Shown here: piece by piece, positions 4,333 through 33,340 of the stretch | Numbering within the stretch: position 1 is the first letter of the stretch | How the letters are laid out: each line of letters begins with the position of its first letter | NCBI GenBank assembly: GCA_025210235.1 | Contig: JAOASG010000034.1 | Span: 63,922 to 127,921 of the forward strand | Direction: 5' to 3' | Origin: Vallitalea sp. | GTDB taxonomy: Bacteria; Bacillota; Clostridia; Lachnospirales; Vallitaleaceae | Length of the DNA: 64,000 bases | Notes under the pieces: model-generated | Database searches by the model: none | Told to the model about the DNA's origin: nothing | What the model saw: only the letters and a program-made list of their open reading frames with translations | Program-made: the position numbers and the translations under genes

Positions 4333-5103
4333 ATGTTATTAGTTATTGACATTGGAAATACTAATATAGTATTAGGTGCATATAAGAATGATGAATTAGT
4401 AGCAAGTTGGAGGATGACAACAAAGACGCCTAGAACATCAGATGAATATGGATTATTTATGTATAGTCTACTTACACATAAAAATATAAATGTAGATGAT
4501 ATAAAAGATGTAATAATAGCTTCTGTAGTCCCTAATATTATGTATTCTTTAGTTAATGGTATTATTAAATATTTTCATACAAAACCAATTATTGTAGGAC
4601 CAGGGTTAAAAACAGGCATTAATATTAGGACGGATAATCCAAAAGAAGTAGGTGCAGATAGAATAGTTAATATAGTAAGTGCTTACTATACTTATGGTGG
4701 TCCAGCAATTGTTATTGATTTTGGTACAGCTACTACTTATGATATAGTAACAGAAGATGGTGTATTTAATGCGGCAATTACATCACCGGGTATTAAAATA
4801 AGCGCCAATGCATTAGGGAAAATGGCGGCAAAGCTTCCAGAGATAGAGATTAAAAAACCAGAAAGTATACTTGCAAAAAATACAATAACAAGTATGCAGG
4901 CAGGACTTATATATGGATATATAGGACAAGTAGAATACATTGTAACAAAAGTAAAAGAAGAAATGAATTTACCTGATATGAAAGTAGTTGCTACAGGCGG
5001 ACTTGCAAAAATAATTTTTTCAGAAACAGATAAAATAGATATATATGATCCTATGTTAACATTAAAGGGACTTAAAATTATATATGACAAAAACAAAAAA
5101 TGA
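4333..5103 (+). CDS. coaX: type III pantothenate kinase
   Basis: 256 aa with an [12 protein letters not shown]-terminus and the ASKHA fold signature of CoaX. Confidence 0.9.
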
Positions 5104-6089
5104 GTGATGTTATGAAACTTAAAATTAAGAATGTAGAATTAGAAAACAATGTTATATTAGCGCCTATGGCTGGGGTTACTGATTTGCCATATAGGATTTT
5201 ATGCAAGGAGCAAGGTTGTGGATTAGTTTATACAGAAATGGTTAGTGCAAAAGCTATTTATTATAATAATAAAAACACTAAGTTATTATTACAAATAAAT
5301 GAAAAAGAAAGACCAGTTGCTGTACAATTATTTGGCTCTGAACCTGATTTGATGGCAGATATGGCAAAAAAAATAGTACAAGAAAATCCCCTAATAGATA
5401 TAATAGATATTAATATGGGATGTCCAGTTCCAAAAGTAGTTAATAACAATGAAGGATCAGCGCTTATGAAAAATCCTAAACTTGTTGGAGAAATTGTTAA
5501 TAAAGTTTCAAAAGCTATTGATATACCACTAACAATTAAAATAAGAAAAGGATTTGATGAAAGTTCTATAAATGCTGTAGAGATAGCAAAAATAGCAGAA
5601 GAAAATGGTGCAGCGGCAATCGGAGTTCATGGGAGAACTAGAGAACAATATTATAGTGGCAAAGCCGATTGGAATATAATTAGGAAAGTAAAAGAATCGG
5701 TTTATATTCCTGTTCTTGGTAATGGAGATATATTTCAACCAGAAGATGCCAAACGAATGATTGACGAGACAAATTGTGATGGAATATTAATAGGTAGAGG
5801 AGCACAAGGTAATCCATGGATATTTAAGAGGATAATACATTATTTAAATAATGATGAATTATTATCATTACCAGACATTAATGAGATTGTTAATACTATG
5901 AGTAGACATTTAGAAATGCTAACTAATTATAAAGGGGAGTATACAGCTGTACGAGAGATGAGAAAGCATATATCTTGGTATACAAAAGGCTTACCAGGTT
6001 CGACATATATTAGAAAAGAGATTAATAGTATTGAATCTATGGATAAATTAAAAGATAAATTAAAAGAACTAAAGGATTTTTATCAATAA
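5100..6089 (+). CDS. dusB: tRNA-dihydrouridine synthase
   Basis: 329 aa, FMN-dependent Dus family (…LAPMAGVTD…NMGCP…). It overlaps the coaX stop by 4 bp. Confidence 0.85.
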
Positions 6090-6215
6090 CTTATTGTTAA
6101 TAGATCTTAAAAATATTAACTATACTAACATATATTATAAATACAAGAAAATTACATGTATAAAATTTATAATGTGATAATAAATTATACTAAAACATAA
6201 AACTGAAGTGAATGT

Positions 6216-7154
6216 ATGTTTAAAAAATATGCTATTATTAGAGCTAATAAAGAGCTAGAAGATATTAGTTTTAGAAATCCATTTATTAGATATTTTCCTA
6301 ATAAGATGATTCGAAAGTATATAATGAAAAAATTTCCTTTAGATATATCAGAAGTTAAATATTTAGATAATGTAGGACTTGATATTAAGTTACCTATTAT
6401 TGAAAAAGAAATAGAAGATGAATGGTATATTAGAAAAATAATTCAATTATTTAACAGTAGAATGTTGATTTATAATATTAATACAATAATTGTATCGAAA
6501 GAATTGGGAAACTTTAAACATGAATTTGAATCATTAATAGCAGATGAAAAAGCTATTCAATTTTTGTATATTGATAAAGTAATAGAAAAAATAACTAATT
6601 GTATAAATAAGGAATTAAAAGATATGAATTTTGTTATAATAGATGGAGATAATAGTAAAACTAGATATATTATAGATCAGATATATCATGGTATTAATTC
6701 TCTAACTATTGTAACATCAAAACCACAAATATTTGAGGATAGAGTTGAAGAAATTTTTAATGAAACAGGTTTAGCTATTGCAATAACTAATAACAGTATT
6801 AATCAAGATATATCTAGTGATATTGTTATAAATTGTAATAAAGAACAAGATAAGATTTTTTATTGCTTTGAAGAAGACTCATATATAATTGATTTTATAT
6901 CAAGTGATGATAAGATTAAAAACATAATTATAAAAAGAAGTGATATTAACATAGTTACAGGAATAGATATGTATGTTGATAATCGTCTTATTAGTAAAGA
7001 ATTATTCCATGGTATTTTACTAAATGAGAATCGTCTGTTAAGAAGTATGTATTTATATGGATATAAAACAAATATGTGTGATAGGTTAAACAAAATCAAA
7101 TCTAAATATCATCTAACGATAGGGAAAATATACCAAAGGAGTCAACAACTATAA
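6216..7154 (+). CDS. hypothetical protein (312 aa, Ile/Asn/Lys-rich)
   Basis: Long ORF between dusB and greA with no recognisable domain. Confidence 0.5.
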   Translation: MFKKYAIIRANKELEDISFRNPFIRYFPNKMIRKYIMKKFPLDISEVKYLDNVGLDIKLPIIEKEIEDEWYIRKIIQLFNSRMLIYNINTIIVSKELGNFKHEFESLIADEKAIQFLYIDKVIEKITNCINKELKDMNFVIIDGDNSKTRYIIDQIYHGINSLTIVTSKPQIFEDRVEEIFNETGLAIAITNNSINQDISSDIVINCNKEQDKIFYCFEEDSYIIDFISSDDKIKNIIIKRSDINIVTGIDMYVDNRLISKELFHGILLNENRLLRSMYLYGYKTNMCDRLNKIKSKYHLTIGKIYQRSQQL

Positions 7155-7244: not shown

Positions 7245-7401
7245 ACCTTGAATATGATACTATCAATTAATAAAATCAATAAGTATTGGGGAGCGATTAA
7301 TTTTATTAACTAAAACTTCATATTTCATAATTTATTAATTCTAAGTTAGAGGTTTGAGTTATTAGAAATAAAAATTATATTAAGAGGAAGGGTGTAGCAA
7401 G

Positions 7402-12714: not shown

Positions 12715-13581
12715 TTGAACAATTTGGATGTGTTTTGGGAAAATTTAAAATTAATACAATTAGAATTTCCTGTGATAAAACCTAAAGATTTAATAGAGAT
12801 AGCTTTAATAGCATTTGTAATTTATCAACTCCTGAAATGGGTAAGAGGCACTAGAGCGTGGACATTGTTTAAAGGAATGTTGATAATTTTTATTATAGCA
12901 TTTTTATCCATGATACTTAACCTTAATACAATTATGTTTATTTTTGTTAAGACCATTAATACTGGAATTATTGCGTTGCTAATTGTTTTTCAGCCAGAAC
13001 TTAGGAGTGCTTTAGAACAACTAGGACGTAGAAATTTATTTTCAACTTTTATGATATTTGATGAGCAAAAAGAAAAAAAAGAAAAACTTTCTTTAAAATC
13101 AATTCATGGAATTGTAAAAGCAACTGAGGAAATGGCTAAATATAAAACAGGGGCTCTTATAGTTATAGAAAAAGAAGTAAGACTTGGAGAATATGAAAGA
13201 ACAGGAATACCAATTAATGCGATTATTTCTAAAGAATTACTGATTAATATATTTGAACATAATACACCACTGCATGATGGAGCTATTATAATAAGAGATA
13301 ATAAAATTGTTGCTGCAACTTGTTATTTACCCTTATCAGATAATATGAGCCTTAGTAAAGAGTTAGGGACAAGACATAGAGCAGCAGTTGGTATAAGTGA
13401 AGTTTCTGATAGTATCGTTATTATTATTTCAGAAGAAACTGGGAAAGTATCTATGGCAATGGGTGGTAATATTATTAGAAATGTAGATAGTGATTACTTA
13501 ACTAATAAATTAATCTATCATAAAAAAACAGCTGAAATTAAGAAATTTAAAATATGGAAAGGTAGACAGAAGAATGGGTAA
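12715..13581 (+). CDS. cdaA: diadenylate cyclase CdaA (c-di-AMP synthase)
   Basis: 288 aa with N-terminal TM helices and a DisA_N/DAC domain (DGA and RHRAA motifs). The start codon is TTG, preceded by an AGAAGG RBS. Confidence 0.88.
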   Translation: MNNLDVFWENLKLIQLEFPVIKPKDLIEIALIAFVIYQLLKWVRGTRAWTLFKGMLIIFIIAFLSMILNLNTIMFIFVKTINTGIIALLIVFQPELRSALEQLGRRNLFSTFMIFDEQKEKKEKLSLKSIHGIVKATEEMAKYKTGALIVIEKEVRLGEYERTGIPINAIISKELLINIFEHNTPLHDGAIIIRDNKIVAATCYLPLSDNMSLSKELGTRHRAAVGISEVSDSIVIIISEETGKVSMAMGGNIIRNVDSDYLTNKLIYHKKTAEIKKFKIWKGRQKNG

Positions 13582-15207: not shown

Positions 15208-16557
15208 ATGGGTATATTATTTGGAACAGATGGTGTAAGAGGAATTGCAAACAAAGAACTTACTATAGAAATGGCATTTAAGTTAGGGCAAGCAGGAGCA
15301 CATGTACTGACTAAAGAAAATAAACATAAACCAACCATATTAATAGGCAGAGATACAAGAATTTCTGGAGAGATGTTAGAAGCGGCACTTATTTCAGGTA
15401 TATGCTCAGTTGGAGCCAATGCCGTTAGTATAGGAATAGTACCTACTCCAGCCGTAGCTTATTTAACAAAATTATATAATGCAGATGCAGGAGTAGTTAT
15501 TTCGGCGTCACACAATCCAGTAGAATATAATGGAATAAAATTTTTCAATAATAAAGGTTATAAACTGTCTGATCAATTAGAAGATGAAATTGAAGATATA
15601 ATGTTGCGTAGCTATGATAAAATAGAACTTCCTACAGGTACAAAGATAGGAAGGGTAAAGCATAAAAAAGAAAGTATTACAGACTATATTAATTATATTA
15701 AAAGTACAATTGATATGAATTTAGAAGGCATGAAGATAGTTATTGATTGTGCTAATGGTGCTTCCTATGTATCAGCTCCTGAAACATTAAGACAGTTAGG
15801 TGCAGAAGTGTTTATTATTCATAATGAGCCGGATGGAACAAATATTAATAAAAAATGCGGATCAACACACATGAAAGATTTACAGCATTTTGTAACACAA
15901 GTTGGAGCAGATATTGGTTTTGCTTATGACGGAGACGCAGATAGATGTCTTGCAGTAGATGAACTTGGTAATATAATTGATGGGGATCAAATTATGGCTA
16001 TCTGTGGATTATATATGAAAAGACAAGGAAAATTGTGTAAAGATACTGTAGTTGCTACTGTTATGAGCAATCTTGGATTTTTTATTATGGGTAAAGAGAA
16101 GGATATACATATAGAACAAACAAAAGTTGGGGATAGATACGTATTAGAAAAGATGATGGAAGAAGGATATAATTTAGGTGGAGAACAGTCTGGACATATT
16201 ATATTTTTAGACGAAAACACTACAGGCGATGGACTTCTTACTTCTTTACATCTATTAGAAGCACTCAAAAACTCAGATAAAAAATTATCTGAACTAGCAC
16301 AAGTAATGGAAGTATTACCACAAGTTTTAGTAAATGCAAAGGTTACTAATGGTAATAAATACAGTTATTTAGAAGATGAAGTTATAAAAGATGAAATTGG
16401 TAAATTAGAAGAAAAGTTTGATGGTGAAGGTAGAGTTTTAATTAGACCTTCTGGAACAGAACCATTAATTCGAGTAATGATAGAAGGAAAAAATCAAGAT
16501 ATACTTCTTGAGGAAGCAAAATCACTAGCTTCTTTGATTGAAAATAGATTAAATTAG
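15208..16557 (+). CDS. glmM: phosphoglucosamine mutase
   Basis: 449 aa with the active-site SASHNP motif and an [13 protein letters not shown]-terminus. Confidence 0.92.
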
Positions 16558-16567
16558 ATAAGTAACT

Positions 16568-16718
16568 CAAACTTCGCACTTCATAAATTTCTGTGAAGTA
16601 AACTAAATTAAGGATTTCATCAACAATAAAAATACAGATGATCCTACGTTTTTTATTGTTGATGATAAACTCATAAGCCTATATTTTGCTGAACTTAAAG
16701 TCAAAGTGCGAAGTTTGA
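16568..16718 (+). repeat. 151-bp element bounded by perfect 14-bp terminal inverted repeats (TCAAACTTCGCACT / AGTGCGAAGTTTGA), with internal hairpins, in the glmM-glmS spacer
   Basis: TIRs at 16568-16581 and 16705-16718. Nested palindromes ACTTCATAAATTTCTGTGAAGT and CATCAACAATAAAAA…TTTTTATTGTTGATG. A shortened inverted copy lies at 32621-32683. Confidence 0.6.
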
Positions 16719-16761
16719 TTAAGAGAATAAAAGTATAAATAAGTATTAGGAGGACATTAGT

Positions 16762-18594
16762 GTGTGTGGTATAGTTGGATATATAGGTAATAAAGAAGCG
16801 GCACCTATTTTAATTAATGGGTTAAAAAGTTTAGAATATAGAGGATATGATTCTGCAGGAATCTCTATATATGACAATAAGATAAATTCAGTAAAAACAA
16901 AAGGAAGATTAATTAATTTAGAAGAGCGTTTAAGTAATAACCAGTTAAATGGAACTATTGGGATAGGTCATACTCGTTGGGCTACTCATGGAGAACCTTC
17001 AGATATTAATTCACATCCTCATATGAATAGTACTAGTACGATATCATTGGTTCATAATGGAATTATTGAAAACTACATGACAATAAAAGAAAAATTACAG
17101 TTAAAGGGACAAGAGTTTGTATCTGAAACTGATACAGAAGTAGCAGTTCAGTTGATAGATTATTATTATAAAAAGAATAATAATTTATTAGATTCTGTTT
17201 TAAAAGCTATGGAAAAAATTGAAGGCTCTTATGCTTTTGGAGTAATATGTAATGATGAACCTGATAAAATAATTGCAGTTAGAAAAGATAGTCCATTAAT
17301 AATTGGAATTGGTAAAGGGGAAAATTATATAGCATCTGATATTCCTGCTATTTTAGAACATACAAGAGACGTATATCTATTAGAAGATAAAGAAATTGCA
17401 ATTGTAACAAAAGATAATGTTAAAATAATAGATACTGATAAAAATGAAGTAAAAAGAGATATTTATAATGTTACTTGGGATATTAAAGCTGCTAGAAAAG
17501 ATGGATATGAACATTTTATGTTAAAAGAAATTTTTGAACAACCAAAAGTTGTAAAAGATACTTTATCCCCAAGATTGCCTCTTGATATTGATGATATAGT
17601 TCTTGATGATATTAATTTATCCAAAGAGGTTATTAAAAAGATAAATAAAATATATATAGTAGCTTGTGGTACAGCTTCATATACTGGTTTAGTAGGTAAG
17701 TATTTAATTGAAAGAGTAGCTAGAATACCTGTAGTTGCAGAGGTAGCATCGGAATTTCGATATAGAGAACCTATAATTGATGAAAATACTTTAATGATTG
17801 TTGTTTCACAATCAGGTGAAACAGCGGATACTCTTGCAGCACTTCGTCTTGCAAAGAAAGCGGGAGCATATGTAATTGGGATTGTTAATGTAGTGGGGTC
17901 TACAATATCAAGAATTGCAGATGATGTTTTGTATACTTGGGCAGGTCCAGAAATAGCAGTAGCGTCAACTAAAGCATATTCAGCTCAATTATGTGCTATG
18001 TATCTACTCTCAATAAAGATAGCTATGGAATTTGGAAATATTTCAAAAGAAGAATTTTTACTTCTTAGAGAAGAGTTATATACTTTACCTGATAAGGTAT
18101 CTAAAATATTAGAGCAAGCAGATACTATTAAAAAATTAGCTAATAAATACATTAACTCTAAAAATGTATTTTATATTGGTAGAGGTCTTGACTATGCAGT
18201 ATCAATGGAAGGTGCTCTTAAATTAAAAGAGATTGCTTACCTTCATGCAGAACCTTATGCAGCTGGTGAGTTAAAACATGGTCCAATTGCACTTATTGAA
18301 GATAATTCACTTTTAGTTGCTCTTACAGGTCATGAAGAGCTTTTTGATAAGACAGTTAGTAATATAAAAGAAGTTAAAGCTAGAGGTGCTAAAGTGTTAG
18401 CTATTGCTTTAGAAGGTAATACAGAGATAAGTAAGATTGCTAATGATGTAATTTATGTACCAAGAACTAACTGGATGTTTACATCATTACTTGAAAACAT
18501 TCCACAACAAATATTTGCTTATTATATTTCAGTTGGACTGGGTAATGATGTTGATAAGCCAAGGAATTTGGCTAAGAGTGTGACTGTTGAGTAG
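16762..18594 (+). CDS. glmS: glutamine--fructose-6-phosphate aminotransferase (isomerising)
   Basis: 610 aa with GTG start, Cys1 (MCGIVGY), an Ntn amidotransferase domain and two SIS domains. An AGGAGG RBS is present. Confidence 0.93.
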   Translation: MCGIVGYIGNKEAAPILINGLKSLEYRGYDSAGISIYDNKINSVKTKGRLINLEERLSNNQLNGTIGIGHTRWATHGEPSDINSHPHMNSTSTISLVHNGIIENYMTIKEKLQLKGQEFVSETDTEVAVQLIDYYYKKNNNLLDSVLKAMEKIEGSYAFGVICNDEPDKIIAVRKDSPLIIGIGKGENYIASDIPAILEHTRDVYLLEDKEIAIVTKDNVKIIDTDKNEVKRDIYNVTWDIKAARKDGYEHFMLKEIFEQPKVVKDTLSPRLPLDIDDIVLDDINLSKEVIKKINKIYIVACGTASYTGLVGKYLIERVARIPVVAEVASEFRYREPIIDENTLMIVVSQSGETADTLAALRLAKKAGAYVIGIVNVVGSTISRIADDVLYTWAGPEIAVASTKAYSAQLCAMYLLSIKIAMEFGNISKEEFLLLREELYTLPDKVSKILEQADTIKKLANKYINSKNVFYIGRGLDYAVSMEGALKLKEIAYLHAEPYAAGELKHGPIALIEDNSLLVALTGHEELFDKTVSNIKEVKARGAKVLAIALEGNTEISKIANDVIYVPRTNWMFTSLLENIPQQIFAYYISVGLGNDVDKPRNLAKSVTVE

Positions 18595-18671
18595 TGAATT
18601 TTGGTTAAATAATATATATTGTAGACTTACAACAAAGTTGTTAAATAAACAATAAAGTTGTTAAATTAGTA

Positions 18672-18708
18672 AATCATGGTTTATCATAAATAGACCATGA
18701 TTTTTTTA
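18672..18708 (+). terminator. rho-independent terminator after glmS
   Basis: AATCATGGT with a 13-nt loop and ACCATGATT, followed by a T7 run. Confidence 0.7.
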
Positions 18709-18775
18709 GAATTTAATAATATAATTTCAAATCACAAAATAAAAAGTTAAGAATCGATAAAAGGAAGGTGTTTAT

Positions 18776-18892
18776 GTGATTGAAATCATGCCACTAATAT
18801 ATGAAGATGAACATTTTATAGTTGGGATTGCAAGATATCATACTTTAAGTGGTAATAAGAAGCAAAAAATAAAAGAGGCTTTACAAGGATAA
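18776..18892 (+). pseudogene. short ORF or gene remnant (38 aa, GTG start) in the glmS-downstream spacer
   Basis: An AAGGAAGG RBS followed by GTG and a 38-codon ORF (…IEIMPLIYEDEHFIVGIARYHTLSGNKKQ…). It is too short for the ORF track and looks like a truncated N-terminus. Confidence 0.25.
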
Positions 18893-19134
18893 TATTGTTA
18901 TGATACCTCTACTCTAGTCAAAATATATAAAGGATAAACATAAATAATTCATTTAATTGGTTTAATTTAGATACTATACTAATCAAAGCATTACTTGATA
19001 ATGCTGGAACCTGGAATATACTGTAAGATATTAAGACAAAAAGCCTCAAGCATCACAGATGCATTGATATTAATAAAATGAGTTAAAATATTATGAGAAA
19101 TTACAAAAAACATATGGTCCATAACATAAATATA

Positions 19135-19143
19135 TGATATAAT
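19135..19143 (+). promoter_or_regulatory. extended -10 (TGATATAAT) promoter candidate for the methyltransferase gene
   Basis: TGnTATAAT lies 37 nt upstream of the start codon. The -35 element is weak. Confidence 0.4.
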
Positions 19144-19179
19144 ATATTGGGCAATAATTAAAAATTTGGGTGAGAAAAA

Positions 19180-21093
19180 ATGTCAAGAAAATTGATTGAA
19201 AATATAATTCCTATTAAAGAATTAAGTGAATTAGCGAAAAAAGAAGGAAACAGTAAAAAACCTGTATATAGAATTCATAAATGGTGGGCTAGAAGATTAG
19301 GCTGTATAGTTAGAGCGCTCTATATTGCATCAGAATTACATTACGATGCTACAGATGAAGAATTTTGGGATAGATTTTACTCAAAAAATACAAGTGACTT
19401 GACAGTTTTAGATCCATTTATGGGTGGAGGGACTACGTTAGTAGAAGCTAAAAAAATGGGTATGAAAACAATAGGTGTTGATGTTGACCCACTTGCATGT
19501 TTTATTACGAAAAAGGAATTAGAAGATTGTAATTTGGATAGGATAAAAAAACAATATGAAATAATAGAAAAAAATATAGCTGAAAAGATTTTGAAACTAT
19601 ATACAACACGAATAGATGATAAGGAATATGAGATAATAAACGTCTTTTGGGTTTATGAAATTGATTGCCCAGAATGTAATTCTAAGGTTAGAACACACCC
19701 TCATTATAAATTATATTATAATAAAGAACAACAATATGTATTTTGTTCAGAGTGTGGAGAAGTAGATGTTATTGATATTAGCAAAGAAATTCATACGTGT
19801 AAATCCTGTGGATCAAAAACTAATATTGATAATGGTACCTACAAAAGAGGTAAGTGTAAATGTAAAATATGTAATACAGATTTTTTATTAAGAGATAATG
19901 TTAAAGGTAATAGAAACCTTCGATTATTTGCTTTAGAATATTTAGATGGAGAAAAAAGACTATTTAAAAAAGCAGACTATCAGGATATCAAGAAATATAA
20001 TGAATTAGAAACATATGATTATGTCCAAATACCAAATGAAAAAATTCCAAATGAAGCTAGAAAAGATATGAGACCTATTAGCTATGGATATAATAATTAT
20101 GGAGAGTTATTTAATAAGAGGCAAAGAATTGCTTTATCAATAATTTATAATGAAATTAATAATATTAAAAACGCATCAATTAAAGAATGGTTTACTATAA
20201 CTTTTTCAGATGCATTAGCATGTAATAATATGTTATGCAATTATGCTTATGGATATAGAAAATTAACACCGCTATTTGGTATTCATGCATTTACTGTACC
20301 TGTTAGACCTGTTGAAAATAACGTTTGGGGAACTACATTTGGAAGAGGCTCATTCAAAAAAGTTTTTAATAAGACTATTAGAGCAAAAGAATACTGTCAA
20401 AATACATATGAATCTAAATATGAAAAGGGTAAGCATAAAAGGATATATACAGGAGAAAGTATAAAGGCAAAGGTGACTTCAAATCCTGTGACTTTTTATA
20501 AAGGGAAAAGGGATAGTTTAATATTAAATCGTAGTTCTGCTCAATTAAAAGCAGTAAGAGACAAAACAGTTGATATTATAATGACGGATCCTCCATATTA
20601 CGATAATCTAAACTATTCTGAACTTGCACATTTTTATTATCAGTGGATAAAAGAGGATATTTCTTATAAATGTGATGATTATATGGATAAATCTCTTCAT
20701 GTCAATGATTTAGTGGAGAACTATCATGAGTTATTTGTAGACCAATTAACAAAAGTATTTAAGCAGTGTTATAAGAAGCTAAAAGATGATGGTATTATGG
20801 TTTTTTCATATCATCATAACAAAGAAGAAGCTTGGCAGGCATTAGGTAAAGCGATATATACTGCAGACTTTAAAATAGTTAATGTGTTTCCTGTTTTATC
20901 AGAAGGTAATAGTGCATATCATTCATCTGAAGGAACTATAAAGTGGGATTCAATCTTAGTACTCAAAAAAGCAGATAATTGTAAGAACATAACTAAAAAG
21001 AACATAGAATATTGGAAGCGATATTTCAAAGATAATAATTTAGAATTAAAACAATGTGACATAAATAGTATTTTGCAGTCAATTAAAATATAA
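19180..21093 (+). CDS. DNA (N6-adenine/N4-cytosine) methyltransferase, split-motif DUF1156-like type with Zn-ribbon insert
   Basis: 637 aa. N-terminal KKPVYRIHKWWARRLG box. AdoMet motif I VLDPFMGGGTTLVEA at about aa 75-90. Four CxxC pairs (CPEC, CSEC, CKSC, CKIC) in the middle. Catalytic motif IV IMTDPPYYDN at about aa 465. Confidence 0.75.
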   Translation: MSRKLIENIIPIKELSELAKKEGNSKKPVYRIHKWWARRLGCIVRALYIASELHYDATDEEFWDRFYSKNTSDLTVLDPFMGGGTTLVEAKKMGMKTIGVDVDPLACFITKKELEDCNLDRIKKQYEIIEKNIAEKILKLYTTRIDDKEYEIINVFWVYEIDCPECNSKVRTHPHYKLYYNKEQQYVFCSECGEVDVIDISKEIHTCKSCGSKTNIDNGTYKRGKCKCKICNTDFLLRDNVKGNRNLRLFALEYLDGEKRLFKKADYQDIKKYNELETYDYVQIPNEKIPNEARKDMRPISYGYNNYGELFNKRQRIALSIIYNEINNIKNASIKEWFTITFSDALACNNMLCNYAYGYRKLTPLFGIHAFTVPVRPVENNVWGTTFGRGSFKKVFNKTIRAKEYCQNTYESKYEKGKHKRIYTGESIKAKVTSNPVTFYKGKRDSLILNRSSAQLKAVRDKTVDIIMTDPPYYDNLNYSELAHFYYQWIKEDISYKCDDYMDKSLHVNDLVENYHELFVDQLTKVFKQCYKKLKDDGIMVFSYHHNKEEAWQALGKAIYTADFKIVNVFPVLSEGNSAYHSSEGTIKWDSILVLKKADNCKNITKKNIEYWKRYFKDNNLELKQCDINSILQSIKI

Positions 21094-21203
21094 AAGATTG
21101 ATATATTTAATAGAAAAAATAACTAAAGATAACATTAGTTGTTTTTTTTTGTATTTTTGTGTAAAATAATATTAGAGTATAAAAAATTAGAAAGGAGCAC
21201 ATA

Positions 21204-24200
21204 ATGAAATACATAGTAGATAAAAGTGTATTTACTAGCTTGGCAAATAATGGATGTAAAAAATATGCAATAAATCTTCTTTCAAAAAAATGGCAAGAAA
21301 GTTTGAAACAATCCAAATGTCAGTGTGGTTCAAATAAAAAAATGATTGAATGTTGTGGAAAAAATAAGAGTATTAATGAAATATTTCATGATTATAATTA
21401 TGTTGAAGAAAAATTAAAAATAAAAATTCCTCACGTTGATAAAGCTCCATTAGCAGCTCATATAAGGCAAGGTGAATATGCTGAAATTAAAAAGATTGAG
21501 GAATTGTCATATTATTATAATATAGGAACTCAATTACTAAATATAAAAAAATCAGAATTAATCAAGCCTTTTTCTAGTTCTGGAGAATTAGATATAACAT
21601 TTAATAAAAATAATTCAGAGCGACTTGGTCGATTAATATTTAAAAGAAAGATAAAAGGTAATGACTTCAAAATTCCTAAAGTGGGAGAAATTTGTAGTAT
21701 TGAGTTGTTTGAAAAGATAATCAGTAATGATAAATATGATTTTTTGTTTCAATTTAAATTTAATGTTAATAAGTATTTTTTTGCCTCTATTATTGGAAAG
21801 ATTGATTTTGAATCTATTTATACAAAATTACCGGATGTAGAGTTTTCAAATTGTATGCCTGATTTAATTCGTATAGTTCGCAAGAATGATGAGAAATATT
21901 ACAATTATAAAGTATTGGATGCTAATATGAATTCCGTTAATTCTAATAACGATAAAATTAAAATCATGGTTTGTGATATAAAAAATTCTGATTTTAGTAA
22001 TAAGTTCTTTGTTGAGTTAGGTCTATATATGTTGGCACTAAATTCTTATATTTATGATAATAATTTAGAAGAAATGGTTGAAGTAGTATCAGAAGGATTA
22101 ATATATCCTGAACTAGAGAATGAGATTGAAGAAGAAAGATTACACAGAATTAAGAATAAGGGAAAAGAATCAATTGCTAAATGGAGAGTAGAATTTTCAT
22201 CAATTAGAGAAGAAATAATAAAAGTATTTAAAGAGAAAATACCTGAATTAATACATATGGTTGAGCAAGGCAAGAGAAAAGATTATACAGAAATTAAAAT
22301 AACGCCAATGTGTACAACATGTGATTACTATGGTGGCCAAAATTCTGCTGAACTTAAAAAATATATAAATAATAATTTAGGAAAAGAACATTTTACATAT
22401 TCAAATATCGAAGAATATCTTAATGATCCAGACAATAACTTCTGTAGATATTGTGTTAAAAATGAAGAAAATATTAATTTGCTTCCGGATATTAATACTG
22501 GTGAAAAAAACACATTAATCAGTAATTCTATTTACAAAATTCGTGATTTAAAAAAAGCGATTCAAATAGATAATGGTATTTTTGATGAGAATATATCTCT
22601 AAAATCCGATAAAAAAATAATTGACATGGGATTAACCCTAAGAGAAAAACAGGAAAATTATACATTGCTAAATAAAAGAACAATAAATTTGCCTAAATTC
22701 TGTAATTTAAAGATATTTATAGATATTCAAAAAAGCTCCAAGGACCAAACGCTATCATTTGCATATAGTATTAATACTATTTATACTGATAAAGAAGGGA
22801 ATAAAATCAATGAAGGAGGATTGCTAAATCCCAAATTATCTATATCATTAATTGATGAATATTCGTTTAGAAATGATATTAAAGAATATCTAGAGTTTTT
22901 ATTTGACATAAATGATGTTTTGATAAACTTTGAAGATGTTGAAAATAAGTATGGTCAGCTAACATATTCATTAATATACTGGGGTCAATCTACTTATGAT
23001 CATATGAAGAAATTATTTCTTGTGATATTTCCTTATCTTAAACGTGATGGAAAAGGAATTGAAGAAATATATATATCTAGTAATGATACAACAATAGAAA
23101 ATAAAAAAAGGAAAATTAAACAGTTAAAAGAAAGGTTTTATACTTTGTTTGCACCTGAAGATGAATTGCAAGATTATCAGATTGTTGAAAAAAGTCCTTT
23201 TTTTGACATGAAAAAAGCCGTTACAGATACTCTTGTAATGAATGCAGATATTAGTCTAACTTTAGAGCAAGTGAATAGTTTGTTATCAAATTATAATTAT
23301 AGTTTTGGATATCATAAACCTGATTCGGATAGCTTTAGTGGATATGTGTATGGGCAAATATGGAATGTTGATAAGACTGGAAAAGAGAAAGATAATTTTA
23401 AAAAAGATATACAAAAGATTATTGAGCAAAGATTAAAGGCAATGATGGGTATTTATATCCATCTATCAAAAAAAGGCTATTTATATGGAGATTCTCCAAC
23501 AATTATTCCTTTGAAAAATAAAAATCTTTTTGGAAACTTTGATATAGCTAATGATTTATATTTGTATCATAAATTAGATAATGCTCATGAGTTAATTGAG
23601 AAAGAAAAAATACATAATGAAGAAATATATAAGAAAAAGATATTGGGTAAGGCTCTTTTTCTAAAGGAAGAAATTATCGGAAATGAAAGAAGTAAAATCT
23701 TAGAAAAATATGATATACCTAATAATGACGAATTTGTTGTATATGAGATTGGTGATGAGTCTGTTGAAACTAAGCTAGATAAAAAGAGTTTATGCTTAAC
23801 CATGTATCCAGAAGAAAAGAATGATTTTATATTTAAGAAGTTTGTACCATTAAAATATAATAACGTTATTTACTATGATGATAAGAAATATCCGATAGAC
23901 TGGGGATATAAAAGGAATCAACGTACGTATAAAAAGGCATTAGAAGTCAAGATACACTTGTTTAAGCGTTTTAATAAGATTATCGTTTTACGAATACCAT
24001 CATTAACTAAAGAGTTAATGAAGATATTGGTGAATGAATATAATTTTGATTTTAGTAGAAATATTATTATTGAATGTTTTCATCATGATTTCTGGGATTC
24101 GGTATTGAAAAGAACGTTGAATAAATTAAAAACTAATAAGGATAAAAGGAAGATGTTAGAGGATTTTGATCTAACTAAAATAAATGACTATTCATCCCAA

Positions 24201-25673
24201 AATATACTTGATGCTTTTAATGAATATTATGATGGGGTAGATATACCATTAGATAATTCGCAAGTAGGAGCTATTATTAAATCTTTAAATTATAACTTAA
24301 CATTGTTATGGGGACCACCTGGTACAGGAAAGACGCATACACTTGTTAACCTACTAGTTGCTTATAATATGCTTAATGATAAGCCTAAGCAAGTATTAAT
24401 AATGTGTAATACATATGACGCATTTGACAATATTATTTCAAAGCTTAGCGAAAACAAGATATTAGATTTTGAAGATATAGAGATTATTAGGTTAAGGAGT
24501 AATTATAGAGCTTCTAAAAAATATGAGTTTAATCATCTTAATTATCTTGATATTGGAAGTGGTGAATATAAAGAGAAGTTAAATGAATTATCTAAAAAAA
24601 ATATAAAACTACAAATAATTGCAAGTACCCCTCAACAGATAGGCAAAGTATTTGGAAACAGGCCACTAAAGAGTGCATTTAATATGGATCTTATTATTGT
24701 CGATGAGGCCTCACAAATGGATGTAGGACACTTTACTCCTGCACTTTTAAAATATAGTAAAGGTACACAAATTGTTTTAGCAGGTGATGATAGACAATTA
24801 CCGCCAATTACCAAAGTAAACCTTGAAAATGCAAAAGAAAATTATTATGGTTCTATATTCAGCCACTACTTATTAATGTTAGGTGATAAACTAAGGGTAT
24901 CATTAAATAATAATAGAAGATCAAATAAGACAATTGTTAATTTCTCTAAATTTACTTTTGATTATGACGATGATTATAGGGCAGTATATGAAAATAGAAA
25001 GATTGGTTTTGATAAAGTAAATAAAAATGATGATGTTTATAGTAAAATTTTGAACCCGAACAACTCTATGGTTCTATTACATTATGATGATGGTAATGCA
25101 AATCAATTAAATAAATTTGAGGCTAAAGAGGTTGTAAATATAATAAGACATATTTGGGATAATGGATTATTAGATGATAACAATAATAGATATAATATTC
25201 AGGATTTCCTTAAAAAAGGTATTGGTGTTGTTGTTCCACATACTGCACAAAGAAGGCATATACAAGATTTGTTAATACAATTATTTATCGATGAGTTACA
25301 TTTGGATAAAGATATAGATAAAGAAATTTTAGCGGATAATATTATATCAAGTGTAGATACGGTTGAACGATATCAAGGTCAGGAAAGAGATATAATGATT
25401 TGTAGCTATGTTCTTGGAGATTTAGATGTAATCAATCAAGAAGAAGATTTTATCTATAGCCCAAATAGATTAAATGTAATGATTTCTAGAGCTAAGGCAA
25501 AAGCAATTATTCTAGCATCAAATGAACTTATCCTAAATATAAGTAATAATTTAGAGATTATAGATGCTCAAAAATCACTAAAAGAACTGTTAAATTATTG
25601 TAATGATGAAATACATAAGATTGGTGAAGGAGAATGGAAAAACAAAAATGGAGTAATTAGAATAAAAAAATAG
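21204..25673 (+). CDS. giant nuclease-helicase: SEC-C Zn motif + RecB/Cas4-like PD-(D/E)XK nuclease with Cys cluster + Upf1/Dna2-like SF1 helicase
   Basis: 1489 aa. N-terminal CQCGSNKKMIECCG (SEC-C-like). MVCDIKNSD and ELGLYMLAL resemble the RecB-family DxK and QxxxY motifs. CTTCDYYGG and NFCRYC form an Fe-S-type Cys cluster. C-terminal motifs: I GPPGTGKT, II IIVDEASQ, III LAGDDRQLPP, and VI-like RYQGQERD / NRLNVMISRA. Confidence 0.7.
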   Translation: MKYIVDKSVFTSLANNGCKKYAINLLSKKWQESLKQSKCQCGSNKKMIECCGKNKSINEIFHDYNYVEEKLKIKIPHVDKAPLAAHIRQGEYAEIKKIEELSYYYNIGTQLLNIKKSELIKPFSSSGELDITFNKNNSERLGRLIFKRKIKGNDFKIPKVGEICSIELFEKIISNDKYDFLFQFKFNVNKYFFASIIGKIDFESIYTKLPDVEFSNCMPDLIRIVRKNDEKYYNYKVLDANMNSVNSNNDKIKIMVCDIKNSDFSNKFFVELGLYMLALNSYIYDNNLEEMVEVVSEGLIYPELENEIEEERLHRIKNKGKESIAKWRVEFSSIREEIIKVFKEKIPELIHMVEQGKRKDYTEIKITPMCTTCDYYGGQNSAELKKYINNNLGKEHFTYSNIEEYLNDPDNNFCRYCVKNEENINLLPDINTGEKNTLISNSIYKIRDLKKAIQIDNGIFDENISLKSDKKIIDMGLTLREKQENYTLLNKRTINLPKFCNLKIFIDIQKSSKDQTLSFAYSINTIYTDKEGNKINEGGLLNPKLSISLIDEYSFRNDIKEYLEFLFDINDVLINFEDVENKYGQLTYSLIYWGQSTYDHMKKLFLVIFPYLKRDGKGIEEIYISSNDTTIENKKRKIKQLKERFYTLFAPEDELQDYQIVEKSPFFDMKKAVTDTLVMNADISLTLEQVNSLLSNYNYSFGYHKPDSDSFSGYVYGQIWNVDKTGKEKDNFKKDIQKIIEQRLKAMMGIYIHLSKKGYLYGDSPTIIPLKNKNLFGNFDIANDLYLYHKLDNAHELIEKEKIHNEEIYKKKILGKALFLKEEIIGNERSKILEKYDIPNNDEFVVYEIGDESVETKLDKKSLCLTMYPEEKNDFIFKKFVPLKYNNVIYYDDKKYPIDWGYKRNQRTYKKALEVKIHLFKRFNKIIVLRIPSLTKELMKILVNEYNFDFSRNIIIECFHHDFWDSVLKRTLNKLKTNKDKRKMLEDFDLTKINDYSSQNILDAFNEYYDGVDIPLDNSQVGAIIKSLNYNLTLLWGPPGTGKTHTLVNLLVAYNMLNDKPKQVLIMCNTYDAFDNIISKLSENKILDFEDIEIIRLRSNYRASKKYEFNHLNYLDIGSGEYKEKLNELSKKNIKLQIIASTPQQIGKVFGNRPLKSAFNMDLIIVDEASQMDVGHFTPALLKYSKGTQIVLAGDDRQLPPITKVNLENAKENYYGSIFSHYLLMLGDKLRVSLNNNRRSNKTIVNFSKFTFDYDDDYRAVYENRKIGFDKVNKNDDVYSKILNPNNSMVLLHYDDGNANQLNKFEAKEVVNIIRHIWDNGLLDDNNNRYNIQDFLKKGIGVVVPHTAQRRHIQDLLIQLFIDELHLDKDIDKEILADNIISSVDTVERYQGQERDIMICSYVLGDLDVINQEEDFIYSPNRLNVMISRAKAKAIILASNELILNISNNLEIIDAQKSLKELLNYCNDEIHKIGEGEWKNKNGVIRIKK

Positions 25674-25818
25674 TATGTCAATAGGATGGAATATTCAATG
25701 TATATATAGTAATATAAAGATGATCTTGACATTGATTTATATATATACTGGATAACAAAGAATAATTGGTGAAAAAGTCTAATAAGCACTAATTTTGAAA
25801 TGATGAAAGGGTGAGAAA

Positions 25819-26748
25819 ATGGCAAATATATATTATGTAAAAGTCAATATAAATTCAGAAATTTATAATGTCTATAAAGGTTATGCGTCTATAAGCAATA
25901 TAATGGATGAGGTATTTGAAAAAATTAATGATGAAGTGGATTATGTTCATACTGTGGTTGGACATAATAAGAAAAATCAAAGGTTTGAAAAAGAGGATAT
26001 ATATAGCTTTTCAGAATTACAAAAATTGAAAGATGATGGTAAAGAGTATATCATAGGTAAAATTAATAGGAGGTATCCTATTTTTACAGAAGAATTTGAT
26101 GAAGAAACAAGAAAATCTAAGCCAATTGTAATTGATAATAATTCTATCAGTATTCAATTCTATTTTGATTTGAAATCAGAGATTATAACATTTTGCAAGA
26201 GAAATAAATTTGGCGAAAAGCAGTTTGCACTAGGATTTGAAGGCTTATTAAATGAAATTATGAGAACACAAGATTTTACCATTTTTTTGATTAAAGATCC
26301 TTTCAGTATAGAAGAAAATTTAAAACTTGCTCATAAAATAGTAAAATTAAAAACTATTACTGTAGCCCCAAACGCTAATGAAGAGGAATTAGCTGAGTTA
26401 TATGATGTAGATGTAAAAGATATGGAAACCGCAAATATACATAGAAAAACAAGTATTTTTGAGAGTTCAGATAAAAATAAAGGATTAAATATTAACTCTA
26501 AACTTATAAAAAGTAGTTTGCATCTTAATAAAGCGTATAAAAACTTTCAACGGGGGTATGGCAAACTTGAATTTGATGCCATATCTGAAGAAGGTTCTGA
26601 ATACCATTATGATTCAGATGAAAATTCTCCATTTATGACACACATTAATGATGATTTGAAAAATAATAAAGAGTATTTTATGAAAGAAAGTAAAATAGGT
26701 ATACAAAGAATTATAACTAAAGAAATAATTGAAGCATATGTAAAATAG
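25819..26748 (+). CDS. hypothetical protein (309 aa), co-oriented with the MTase/helicase pair
   Basis: ORF with an RBS (AAAGGGTGAG). No recognisable domain. The C-terminal half is acidic. Confidence 0.5.
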   Translation: MANIYYVKVNINSEIYNVYKGYASISNIMDEVFEKINDEVDYVHTVVGHNKKNQRFEKEDIYSFSELQKLKDDGKEYIIGKINRRYPIFTEEFDEETRKSKPIVIDNNSISIQFYFDLKSEIITFCKRNKFGEKQFALGFEGLLNEIMRTQDFTIFLIKDPFSIEENLKLAHKIVKLKTITVAPNANEEELAELYDVDVKDMETANIHRKTSIFESSDKNKGLNINSKLIKSSLHLNKAYKNFQRGYGKLEFDAISEEGSEYHYDSDENSPFMTHINDDLKNNKEYFMKESKIGIQRIITKEIIEAYVK

Positions 26749-26765
26749 AAGAATGGAGGATTAGT

Positions 26766-27518
26766 ATGAAAAATGACCACTTAGGATTTAAAGCATTATT
26801 TAATGAATTATATGGTAAAAGTAAAAATCCATTGTTTAAATTTAGCTCATTTGAATGTTATTTTTCTATTATAATTTCAATGATTATATCTTCCTTAGGA
26901 TACTTTATTTATCAAGTTAATGGGATCCAAAATTTTACATCAATTATCAAAAATGTAATTTTAGGATTTGGATTTTCATTAATTGGTCTATTAGGATTTA
27001 TTATAACAGGTTTATCTATCATGATAAGTACTTTTGATAATAAATCTATTGATACAATACGCAAATCAGGTAGATTAATTAGACTAAAATCTATATTATT
27101 TAGTTTCTATTTTATTGGTTTAGTTATAGGAGTTGAAGTATTATTTTCATTTATATTATTTTTTATAGTTTCAATTGATATATCATTTAATATGACTTTT
27201 TACTGGATATCCTGTTTATTATATACTTACGTTGCTAGCTTTGTCTTATTATATTCTGTTTCATTACTAGGAACTTGTTTCCATATGTTTTTTATAAAAT
27301 TTGGTTATCAAGAAAGTAGTAAAAATACATTGCAGCAAGAAATTAATTTTTTACATCTTAAAGTCGATGCTTTATCAAAGATTTTATATGGTAATGATAT
27401 ATATGAATATGATCAATTTATTGAATGCCTAGAGCAAATTATAAATGATGAGTATCCCGAATGTAAAGAGGAGTTATTTAAAAGAATTAATGAATATTAT
27501 AATTTAAAGATTGGATAA
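26766..27518 (+). CDS. integral membrane protein (4-5 TM) with cytoplasmic coiled-coil C-terminus
   Basis: 250 aa, starting 18 bp after the previous gene. Hydrophobic segments (FSIIISMIISSLGYFIY, ILGFGFSLIGLLGFIITGL and others) precede a soluble tail. Confidence 0.5.
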   Translation: MKNDHLGFKALFNELYGKSKNPLFKFSSFECYFSIIISMIISSLGYFIYQVNGIQNFTSIIKNVILGFGFSLIGLLGFIITGLSIMISTFDNKSIDTIRKSGRLIRLKSILFSFYFIGLVIGVEVLFSFILFFIVSIDISFNMTFYWISCLLYTYVASFVLLYSVSLLGTCFHMFFIKFGYQESSKNTLQQEINFLHLKVDALSKILYGNDIYEYDQFIECLEQIINDEYPECKEELFKRINEYYNLKIG

Positions 27519-27699
27519 ATAGAAAACAATAGTTAGAAAATAATTATAAAATTTTATGGATTATTGCTAGTTATAAAACCAATTAACTTAAATGATACTA
27601 AAATACTTGTAGTTACTAAGAAATTACTAAATTTGATATTAAGGATGTATTCCGCTACAATAAAAATTCAACAACTATCTAACAAAAAGAAAAAAGGGG

Positions 27700-27970
27700 G
27701 TACTTTTGCTATTATATTTATGATATTTGAAGCAATATAGGTATTTCCAGTGATGTATGAATTATCGGTCTTAAACGCAGGTATGATTGTTTTCTCAACA
27801 ATTATTTCAGACCAATATGATAGGACTTGGATTACGTGTTTGCTTAGAATGGGGAAGTATCCATAGTAAGGAATTTAACCATTGCTAATATTCTCTTAAC
27901 GTATATTCCTATTGTCGTAGTAATTATTATTGGTTATGTATTTACAGGTTACTATCCAAACAATAATTAA
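27700..27970 (+). pseudogene. frameshifted C-terminal remnant of a membrane (permease-like) protein
   Basis: Two adjacent frames encode …YELSVLNAGMIVFSTIISDQYDRTWITCLLRMGKYP* and …NLTIANILLTYIPIVVVIIIGYVFTGYYPNNN*. There is no start codon or RBS. A hairpin follows at 27996-28030. Confidence 0.3.
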
Positions 27971-31445: not shown

Positions 31446-32573
31446 CTAAAAAAGTTCATTTAACCTTTCTAAAACATTACCGCCTCCATTAAGTGAAATA
31501 TTACCTACTTTCTCACATATTTTTTCAATATGTTCTAGTTCTTTGAGTTTGTATAAAGTCTTGTTTTCGTCCATAAGCTTTGCTGTGTTTAATAGGCTTC
31601 TAGTAGATGCAATTTCTTCTCGTCTTGTTATAACATTAGCTTGAGCTTTTTTCTCTGCTAATAAAACAGTATTAAGTATATCTTTTATTTCACCTGGGAG
31701 AATAACATCTTTTATGCCAGCATAAATAAATTCAATACCCATCTCGGATTCTTTTTCTTTTAATTTAGATAGGACATAATATCCAATTTCTTGTTTCATT
31801 TTTAATAAATCATCTAGTCTTATTGTACCTATATATTCACGTAGTATAAGTTGTATAAGGATATATACTTGTTTTACATAATTTTTTATTTCAAGTGTTA
31901 CTTTTAGAACATCTGTAACTTTGTATTGACAGAAGAAGTTTAATCTAAGGGTTACTTTATCAGCTGTCATAATCTCTTGGCCACAGATATCTAATTGATT
32001 TTGTCTCATATCTATGTTTTCAGATGTAACATTAATATATTTAGTCCAATAAAAATATCTACCGGCATCAAGGATTTTTACAAAATTATTATTATAAAAT
32101 ATCACTGCTTTTTCATATGGGGCTACATACACTTCAGTAAATTTATCTCTTAATACCTGATTATATAGATTATTATCACTAAATAAATCTAATACAATAT
32201 CTTCACTAACTTCAGGTTCAGTCATATCTATTATTTTAAATTCGTTTTTCTTATGTATTTTCCAAAAGGCATATTTACCTGTTTCATATATGTTTGATAA
32301 TTTCCCATTTATGTAATGTAAAACTAATTCGTTATCTTTGACATCTATAATATCTAGTTCACTTAATAACTTATCATCATCCATTAATATATCTAGGTCA
32401 AAGTTAACATCAAAACGTTGATTAGTTATATCTAGAATAACAACTTTATAATTTAGAAAGGATAAAAATGAATATTTGCCTGGGTCAAGGGACTTAACAT
32501 AATCTCCATTTTTAAATAAAAGACCTCTTTCAGTTTTTTTAATATAATATTTCATTGTAAAATCTCCTTCCAC
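31446..32573 (-). CDS. SPFH/band-7 (stomatin/flotillin-like) domain protein with N-terminal non-membrane extension
   Basis: 375 aa. The C-terminal half has band-7 features (…IEFIYAGIKDVILPGEIKDILNTVLLAEKKAQANVITRREEIA…). No N-terminal TM helix. Confidence 0.6.
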   Translation of the reverse strand: MEGDFTMKYYIKKTERGLLFKNGDYVKSLDPGKYSFLSFLNYKVVILDITNQRFDVNFDLDILMDDDKLLSELDIIDVKDNELVLHYINGKLSNIYETGKYAFWKIHKKNEFKIIDMTEPEVSEDIVLDLFSDNNLYNQVLRDKFTEVYVAPYEKAVIFYNNNFVKILDAGRYFYWTKYINVTSENIDMRQNQLDICGQEIMTADKVTLRLNFFCQYKVTDVLKVTLEIKNYVKQVYILIQLILREYIGTIRLDDLLKMKQEIGYYVLSKLKEKESEMGIEFIYAGIKDVILPGEIKDILNTVLLAEKKAQANVITRREEIASTRSLLNTAKLMDENKTLYKLKELEHIEKICEKVGNISLNGGGNVLERLNELF

Positions 32574-32620
32574 ATAAGTAATTTTAATTACCTAGTAACT
32601 TAAAACATGAATAATAATTA

Positions 32621-32683
32621 CTCAAACTTCAATCTTTGACTTTTAGTTTGCTTCACAGAAATTTATGAAGTGCTAAGTCTGAG
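32621..32683 (-). repeat. shortened (~63 bp) copy of the glmS-leader TIR element, in the 5' leader of the SPFH gene
   Basis: 32621-32650 is the reverse complement of the right arm (16693-16722). 32647-32690 is the reverse complement of the left arm (16565-16604), with about 40/44 identity. The central ~90 nt are absent. Confidence 0.55.
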
Positions 32684-33027
32684 ATAATGAGTCTAATTCC
32701 TCCAAACCAAGTGCGGGGTTAATGTTTAGTATGGAATATTTTATACCGAATATAATTAACGTAACTATTAACATAACAAGATGTTACATTAAATTATACG
32801 ATAATATTGGATATAATTTATTCTAAACGGTATCCCAATAACCTCAAAGCACTTGATTTGTTAAACTTAAAAACTTGTTATATGGTATCTTGAAAATCAA
32901 GATACTTATAATAGTTTTTTGTACATAGAATTAGACAAATTAAAATTATAATAGGGCAACGTGACAGGTTGCATTTTCATAGGGATTTGAACCCCGAACA
33001 TTATTTTTAATGTTTTAACCATCAACA

Positions 33028-33070
33028 GCTCAAATTTGAGCTAAGAGAGGACCTTAACCTCTTTTTTTTT
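33028..33070 (+). terminator. tandem hairpins plus U-tract (GCTCAAATTTGAGC; AAGAGAGG-accttaa-CCTCTTTTTTTTT)
   Basis: A perfect 14-nt palindrome is followed by a 5-8 bp GC stem and a T9 run. There is no upstream + strand CDS, which suggests an orphan terminator or sRNA 3' end. Confidence 0.5.
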
Positions 33071-33340
33071 GTACTTCTCGGCATACCTGATAGAGAACTC
33101 TTAGGCACCGCAAGACATCAAAAGTCTTAGCATAGAAAAGTTACAAATGACATCGTCATGAACCATATGTTACCATTTAACCTATAATTTATCATTAAAA
33201 AAAAGTTGCGAACTTAATTAGTATTACTTTAATATTAAATTTATAAATTGACATAGTTTTTCTATAATGATAGTATTTTTCTTGAACACATTAAGTTTTT
33301 CTTTAATCGGAAAGTTATACGAAAAGGGTAGGTAATAGAT

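Follow-up and report, generated by a model that had tools for sequence, protein, structure and literature searches.

Does the inverted-repeat-bounded sequence between glmM and glmS in an uncultured marine Vallitalea belong to the regulation of glmS, or is it a mobile element that happens to lie there? The window analyzed here is the whole 64-kb stretch of DNA. It has a G+C content of 27.4%, and the proteins it encodes match those of a GenBank MAG with the annotation Vallitalea sp. (Clostridia). In the first-pass annotation, the element was noted in the place where a glmS ribozyme would be expected and was described as either a MITE-like mobile repeat or a structured cis-regulatory leader. The genes around it are arranged as follows.

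12715–13581: cdaA
13574–14920: cdaR/YbbR
15208–16557: glmM
between glmM and glmS: spacer of 204 bp, carrying the 154-bp element
16762–18594: glmS, GTG start, product beginning MCGIVGY

The element is real. A repeat search identifies a perfect 15-nt inverted repeat, TCAAACTTCGCACTT at 16567–16581 and AAGTGCGAAGTTTGA at 16704–16718, with 122 nt between the arms. The first-pass annotation had placed the right arm correctly and had recognized the repeat as perfect, but had given it 14 nt rather than 15, and the left 14-mer that it quoted starts at 16567, not 16568. With a terminal C at 16566 and a mismatched T at 16719, the arms of the 154-bp element extend to 16 nt. The near-palindromic and AT-rich hairpins reported within it are also present, as a subterminal ACTTCA...TGAAGT hairpin at 16578–16599 and a perfect 16-nt stem, 16617–16632 paired with 16650–16665, around a 17-nt loop. 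The features used below are these.

16566–16719, plus strand: full-length non-autonomous element, very probably a MITE, 154 bp; ends set by homology to the insertion sequence (IS) termini CTCAAACTTCGCACTT ... AAGTGCGAAGTTTGA(G>T)
16566–16581, plus strand: left terminal inverted repeat CTCAAACTTCGCACTT, equal to the left repeat (IRL) of the IS copies in L036, L062 and L082–L091 and fitting the ISPepr1 signature
16704–16719, plus strand: right terminal inverted repeat AAGTGCGAAGTTTGAT, last base T where the IS copies have G
16559–16565, no strand: left copy of the 7-bp target-site duplication, TAAGTAA (empty site TAAGAAA)
16720–16726, no strand: right copy of the 7-bp target-site duplication, TAAGAGA
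16576–16598, plus strand: subterminal block GCACTTCATAAATTTCTGTGAAG, folding into a small hairpin that reaches into the inner end of the left terminal repeat
16617–16665, plus strand: perfect 16-bp AT-rich hairpin with a 17-nt loop, within the ~88-bp middle section that is missing from a second, short copy

By itself, the 15-nt inverted repeat is only modestly unusual in DNA of this composition. The 64-kb window has just two perfect inverted repeats with arms of 15 nt or more no further than 300 nt apart, both inside the 154-bp element, and at least one such 15-mer pair is found in 28 of 200 Markov-simulated windows. That frequency, at 27% G+C, is the argument for regarding the structure as a palindrome that arose by chance, or as an ordinary intergenic terminator hairpin, and that was never mobile. 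We consider this reading refuted, since it cannot account for a 161-bp polymorphism between strains, for the 16-nt identity of the ends with those of insertion sequences, for the second copy or for the absence of a U-tract, all of which are described below.

Exact look-up of the GlmM protein led to contigs of the same species from several metagenomes, five of which encode an identical GlmM; exact look-up of GlmS, beginning with either V or M, gave no match. One of them (L001, JGI 3300045489) has the same 204-bp glmM–glmS spacer as the window, and two others (L004 and L005, from Logan) contain the same insertion and end within it. In the remaining two (L002, JGI 3300045483, and L003, Logan SRR21418666), the spacer measures just 43 bp. 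The filled and empty alleles are identical through window position 16562 and then differ in length by exactly 161 bp, which is the sum of the 154-bp element, with its ends as defined by the IS copies, and a 7-bp duplication. The difference is an insertion. DNA identity between filled and empty strains is 99.93% in glmM, 99.4% in cdaR and 98.6% in glmS, and a conserved regulatory leader would not vary in presence among strains as close as these. The duplication is of the length found for the related IS copies (7–8 bp) and is imperfect: the flanks TAAGTAA and TAAGAGA are each one position away from the empty-site TAAGAAA and agree with one another at five of seven positions, so that only TAAG is perfectly duplicated. 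The insertion point follows the glmM stop codon by 1 nt and precedes the glmS start by 36 nt. The AGGAGG ribosome-binding site is thereby spared, and both this site and the start codon are unaltered.

Sequence identity falls across the insertion site, from 99.93% in glmM to 98.6% in glmS, with two differences in the 43-bp spacer between the window and L002. The drop is suggestive of a recombination boundary lying at the element or close to it, perhaps linked to the gain of an island downstream of glmS. About 9.4 kb in that region (18594–27958) is present in the window and in L001 and is replaced by ~30 bp in L002. It encodes a 637-aa DUF1156 / N6_N4 DNA methylase and a 1,489-aa protein, along with two smaller ORFs, and looks like a strain-variable restriction or defense island. 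The two Logan contigs that end within the insertion (SRR21418665 for L004 and SRR21418663 for L005) are independent assemblies, and both stop at base 3092, in the loop of the inner hairpin; the shared break could be a sign that the population contains repeat copies, variants of the loop or inverted loops.

The ends of the element identify its relatives. A scan of a viral-contig collection with the 15-mer TCAAACTTCGCACTT gave 57 loci, mostly chance matches within genes. In one contig (L036), the 15-mer occurs twice in inverted orientation and bounds a 1,555-bp unit, CTCAAACTTCGCACTTG ... CAAGTGCGAAGTTTGAG. Inside this unit is a DDE transposase with a frameshift, and on either side of the unit lies TCAAAAA, a perfect 7-bp duplication. 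The transposase matches the NCBIfam model NF049925 (transpos_IS4_4, IS4 family) with 349 bits against a cut-off of 250, and also Pfam DDE_Tnp_1. In this IMG/VR contig, the transposase (5061–6447) is split by the frameshift near profile positions 129–138, and the G+C content of the IS copy is 53%, compared with ~43–46% in its flanks. Four further loci (L018, L040, L045 and L062) begin with the same 20 nt as the L036 unit, and L062 holds an intact 1,589-bp IS with a 457-aa transposase containing YGKRWDIEVFFKVCK. The non-coding ends of the full-length IS are 133 and 82 nt long.

Homologs of the L062 transposase number more than 7,500, and the few with a named source come from Lachnospiraceae and Anaerobium. 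It is 43–53% identical to plasmid-borne IS4-family transposases, including that of ISTeha4 (43%) and that of a Selenomonas ruminantium element. The Selenomonas copy (L070) has CTCAAACTTCGCA at both ends and a perfect 7-bp duplication, TAAATAA, and ten more insertions of one close homolog (L082–L091) have essentially the same ends. Altogether, 13 IS copies of 1,555–1,590 bp share these ends; the left repeat CTCAAACTTCGCACTTG is exact in 11 of the 13, with one mismatch each in L070 and L089, and the related full-length units contain the motif YGxRWxIExxFKxxK. Perfect 7-bp duplications flank L036, L070, L083 and L086, an 8-bp duplication flanks L084, and all flanks are AT-rich. The copies with no duplication lie on short metagenomic contigs, and probably owe its absence to the ease with which the flanks of a multicopy IS are mis-joined there. 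Both ends of the window element match those of L036, L062 and L082–L091, except at the right terminal base, which is a T in place of the G of the IS copies.

These properties place the ends in a described subgroup. According to De Palmenaer, Siguier & Mahillon (2008; Table 1, PMC2266710), members of the ISPepr1 subgroup of the IS4 family are 1,500–1,600 bp long and have an intact YREK motif; their ends read YT-AA-YTT---A, their direct repeats are 7–8 bp, and they show a preference for AT-rich targets and for 5'-CT ends (PMC2266710). The end of the window element, CTCAAACTTCGCA, agrees with this signature at 9 of 9 specified positions, and its targets, TAAGAAA and, for the short copy, T(C/A)ATTAT, are AT-rich 7-bp sites. 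The element therefore resembles the ISPepr1-subgroup IS (L036, L062, L070 and L082–L091, and the named relatives ISTeha4 and ISTeha8; PMC10269466) in its ends, its 7-bp duplication and its AT-rich site. It differs from them in measuring 154 bp rather than 1,500–1,600 bp, in having no transposase gene with a YREK motif and in having an interior unrelated to the sampled copies, with which no similarity beyond the ends was seen. Since it has no transposase gene, it counts as a derivative rather than as an IS of the subgroup. Nor is a transposase of the ISPepr1-type IS4 family encoded anywhere within the 64-kb window. The element has no ORF of its own; the sole overlapping ORF is an antisense frame of 45 aa (16442–16579) that lies mostly within glmM. 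It thus has the small size and lack of coding capacity of a MITE, together with terminal inverted repeats that are perfect over 15 nt, or over 16 nt with one terminal mismatch. An IS200/IS605-type palindromic element, a possibility raised by the subterminal hairpin, was rejected on account of the true terminal repeats, the target duplication and the IS4-type ends.

A second copy lies elsewhere in the window, as the first-pass annotation had reported: a ~63-bp derivative at 32621–32683, which is on the minus strand and without the ~88-bp middle section. A possible third copy is doubtful.

32621–32683, minus strand: short 63-bp copy CTCAGACTTAGCACTTCATAAATTTCTGTGAAGCAAACTAAAAGTCAAAGATTGAAGTTTGAG, a fusion of the long copy's left 41 nt with its right 22 nt
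32684–32690, minus strand: flank TCATTAT, one copy of the duplication, 6/7 match to the other flank
32614–32620, minus strand: flank TAATTAT, the other copy of the duplication
7310–7358, minus strand: possible third relic, 49 bp, strongly decayed, CTCAAACCTCTAACTT...GAAGTTTTAG; tentative

The long and short copies are 93% identical over 42 nt and have GCACTTCATAAATTTCTGTGAAG in common as their sole identical 23-nt stretch; 22 nt of this block were found by pattern search and the extra G was read from both sequences. A 6/7 match between the flanks TCATTAT and TAATTAT has a chance of ~1% by our own estimate, which assumes a per-position match probability of ~0.36 in AT-rich DNA. Downstream of the short copy, and in the same orientation, is an SPFH/Band_7 gene whose ATG (32555) is 65 nt away. 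A contig found via the SPFH product carries the same short copy and so gives no empty site for this locus. The tentative relic, 43 nt upstream of greA, has 7-bp flanks CTAATAA and TTAATAA, which match at 6/7 positions. Each of the five strains examined has it, with the same 247-bp spacer at greA, so this locus offers no empty site either.

The first-pass annotation had proposed that copies be counted and target-site duplications sought. Duplications, although imperfect, are found at both loci, and a combination of nhmmer and a fuzzy terminal-repeat search gave two copies and one doubtful relic in ~84 kb of host DNA (the window and its 10-kb flanks), with no further copies in the flanks. Exact scans of public genome, metagenome and viral contig collections with the conserved internal 20-mer CTTCATAAATTTCTGTGAAG gave chance matches only; those in L006–L010 are unrelated coding sequence of other organisms. 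A blastn search of the element against plasmids and phages gave no meaningful match.

Because the sequence common to the two copies is confined to their end-proximal parts (41 nt on the left and 22 nt on the right), they might be in-situ remnants: a full-length IS would have inserted at each locus and later lost its interior, and the 154-bp unit would never have moved as such. The 133- and 82-nt non-coding ends of the IS are long enough for such leftovers, and just two copies are known. This history, however, requires two events per locus with similar outcomes at both, and the 99.93% glmM identity between filled and empty strains leaves little time for two events. Furthermore, no IS with matching subterminal sequence was found by the exact 20-mer in the genome, metagenome or viral collections. 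We therefore consider the remnant explanation unlikely, and it would leave the fundamental nature of the element unchanged.

Two observations concern the copies in their settings. The 23-nt hairpin block (16576–16598 and 32650–32672) is invariant, against 2–3 mismatches per 15–16 nt in the terminal repeats of the short copy, and in L062-type IS copies a small hairpin, GCACTTGAATAAGTGC, likewise overlaps the inner end of the left repeat; the subterminal hairpin could be a conserved functional feature of the L062-type IS lineage. In addition, 42–43 nt separate the glmS copy and the putative greA relic from the start codon downstream (16720–16761 and 7359–7401), and 65 nt separate the short copy from the SPFH ATG. 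This spacing may reflect nothing more than an AT-rich target preference combined with selection against hits in ribosome-binding sites.

The other possibility in the first-pass annotation was a structured leader. In its favor, the element lies 5' of glmS in sense orientation and is predicted to fold well (−46.2 kcal/mol, z = −3.9); the short copy is likewise sense-oriented upstream of a gene; and the CACTT segment could pair either locally or with the distal arm. The predicted fold is a product of the terminal repeats and the inner palindrome, however, and is no evidence for an RNA function. The hairpins are properties of a transposon, the outer one being its two ends pairing with each other. 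Against a structured cis-regulatory RNA of glmS, whether a ribozyme substitute or an attenuator, the element is missing from strains with identical GlmM, is present in a second copy before an unrelated SPFH gene and matches no Rfam family. Moreover, the arms of the short copy differ at 5 of 16 positions, where two changes give G-U pairs, three give mismatches and none is compensatory. Such changes mostly break pairs, as expected for two protein-binding sites decaying independently. An origin of the element as an RNA leader is therefore highly improbable.

No likeness to the glmS ribozyme (RF00234) remains beyond a position upstream of glmS in a Firmicute; the element has no sequence or structure match to it and is missing from sister strains. 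At the gathering score, Rfam gives no match in the whole 64-kb window, which contains no glmS ribozyme anywhere. The first-pass annotation had seen a resemblance to part of the ribozyme's P3/P4 region, yet RF00234 is not listed for the region 16400–16900 even at E ≤ 10. The expectation of a ribozyme at this position was itself misplaced: instead of a structure conserved upstream of glmS in close relatives, the sister strains have a 43-bp spacer, which cannot hold one, so a glmS ribozyme is not to be expected here in this lineage. The best sub-threshold Rfam match, to the 23S-methyl motif (20.6 bits against a gathering score of 50), was rejected as two generic hairpins.

The element does not resemble a terminator either. 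The inner hairpin had been described as followed by U residues, but its 3' arm runs into TAAACTCATAAG. Its stem is AT-rich and is followed by TAAACTCAT rather than by the U-tract of an intrinsic terminator, which is absent on either strand. A promoter and terminator scan found zero terminator-like sites in 16300–16900 and no promoter-like sites inside the element, and the idea that it serves as a promoter source or a terminator was accordingly rejected.

Given the empty site, the IS4-type termini, the duplication of 7 bp and the second copy, all of which are directly observed, the 154-bp element is very probably a non-autonomous MITE of IS4/ISPepr1 type that inserted before glmS. Its 16-bp ends would be the binding and cleavage sites of an ISPepr1-type DDE transposase, presumably supplied in trans by a full-length IS. 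The element would have been excised by cut-and-paste and inserted into the AT-rich TAAGAAA with a 7-bp staggered cut, so that 7 bp were duplicated. We infer this chemistry from the IS4 family, for whose transposases, e.g., those of Tn5 and Tn10, the cut-and-paste route is established. In those strains of the Vallitalea species that carry it, the insertion has extended the glmM–glmS spacer from 43 to 204 bp, and the 63-bp copy before the SPFH gene would be an internally shortened relative that inserted separately. With no promoter-like or terminator-like site within the element, we would predict that glmS is hardly affected except in having a longer, structured intercistronic region before it, and that the insertion is probably near-neutral.

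Several small elements of known kinds are comparable. Correia elements of Neisseria, RUP of Streptococcus pneumoniae and ERIC/IRU of enterobacteria are intergenic, co-transcribed bacterial MITEs. As in Correia, RUP and ERIC, the window element is in the range of ~100–160 bp, has terminal repeats that fold into a long RNA hairpin, is inserted between operon genes and occurs in long and short variants differing by an internal segment. Those families have tens to hundreds of copies, other parent transposases and TA or other short duplications, whereas the window element is known from two clear copies in ~84 kb. MIC231 and other IS231-derived, non-autonomous elements of the Bacillus cereus group (De Palmenaer et al., 2004; reviewed in PMC6199540) belong to the IS4 family and are mobilized in trans by a cognate transposase recognizing their inverted repeats; like the window element, these have IS4-family ends without a transposase. 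MICs are 0.7–3 kb long, carry passenger genes, belong to the IS231 subgroup and have CAT ends and 10–12-bp duplications, whereas the window element is much smaller and gene-less and has ends of ISPepr1 type.

It is conceivable, although quite improbable, that the 154-nt insert has been co-opted to uncouple or tune glmS relative to the cdaA-cdaR-glmM operon (c-di-AMP / cell-wall precursor) in this lineage without a glmS ribozyme. The 23-nt hairpin, retained in the short copy before the SPFH gene, would then be a module carried by the MITE that works as RNA or binds a protein, for instance by affecting RNA processing or stability or by partly controlling read-through. For the locus as a whole, a false lead is removed, as neither a new glmS riboswitch nor a substitute for the ribozyme is present. 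What is found is ordinary mobile DNA of a known kind that would not surprise a mobile-DNA specialist, namely, a small, probably non-autonomous derivative of the widespread ISPepr1-type IS4 elements whose presence or absence is polymorphic within a conserved operon of an uncultured marine lineage of Clostridia. Such elements are useful as strain markers, explain assembly breaks and can occasionally alter the expression of downstream genes.

The surroundings of the short copy have features of their own. The mechanically called start of the SPFH/Band_7 ORF (31446–32573) is a GTG at 32573; the real start, with GGAGG ahead of it, is the ATG at 32555, and the database record for the gene contains only the 369-aa product. 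Between this gene and a divergent WYL-domain gene lies a 785-bp non-coding gap (32556–33340, minus strand), in which ARAGORN finds no tRNA and Rfam gives no match at E ≤ 1. It does contain a motif resembling a tRNA T-arm, GGGGTTCAAATCCCT at 32981–32995, as well as several hairpins, and could be an integration-site remnant or an unclassified RNA.
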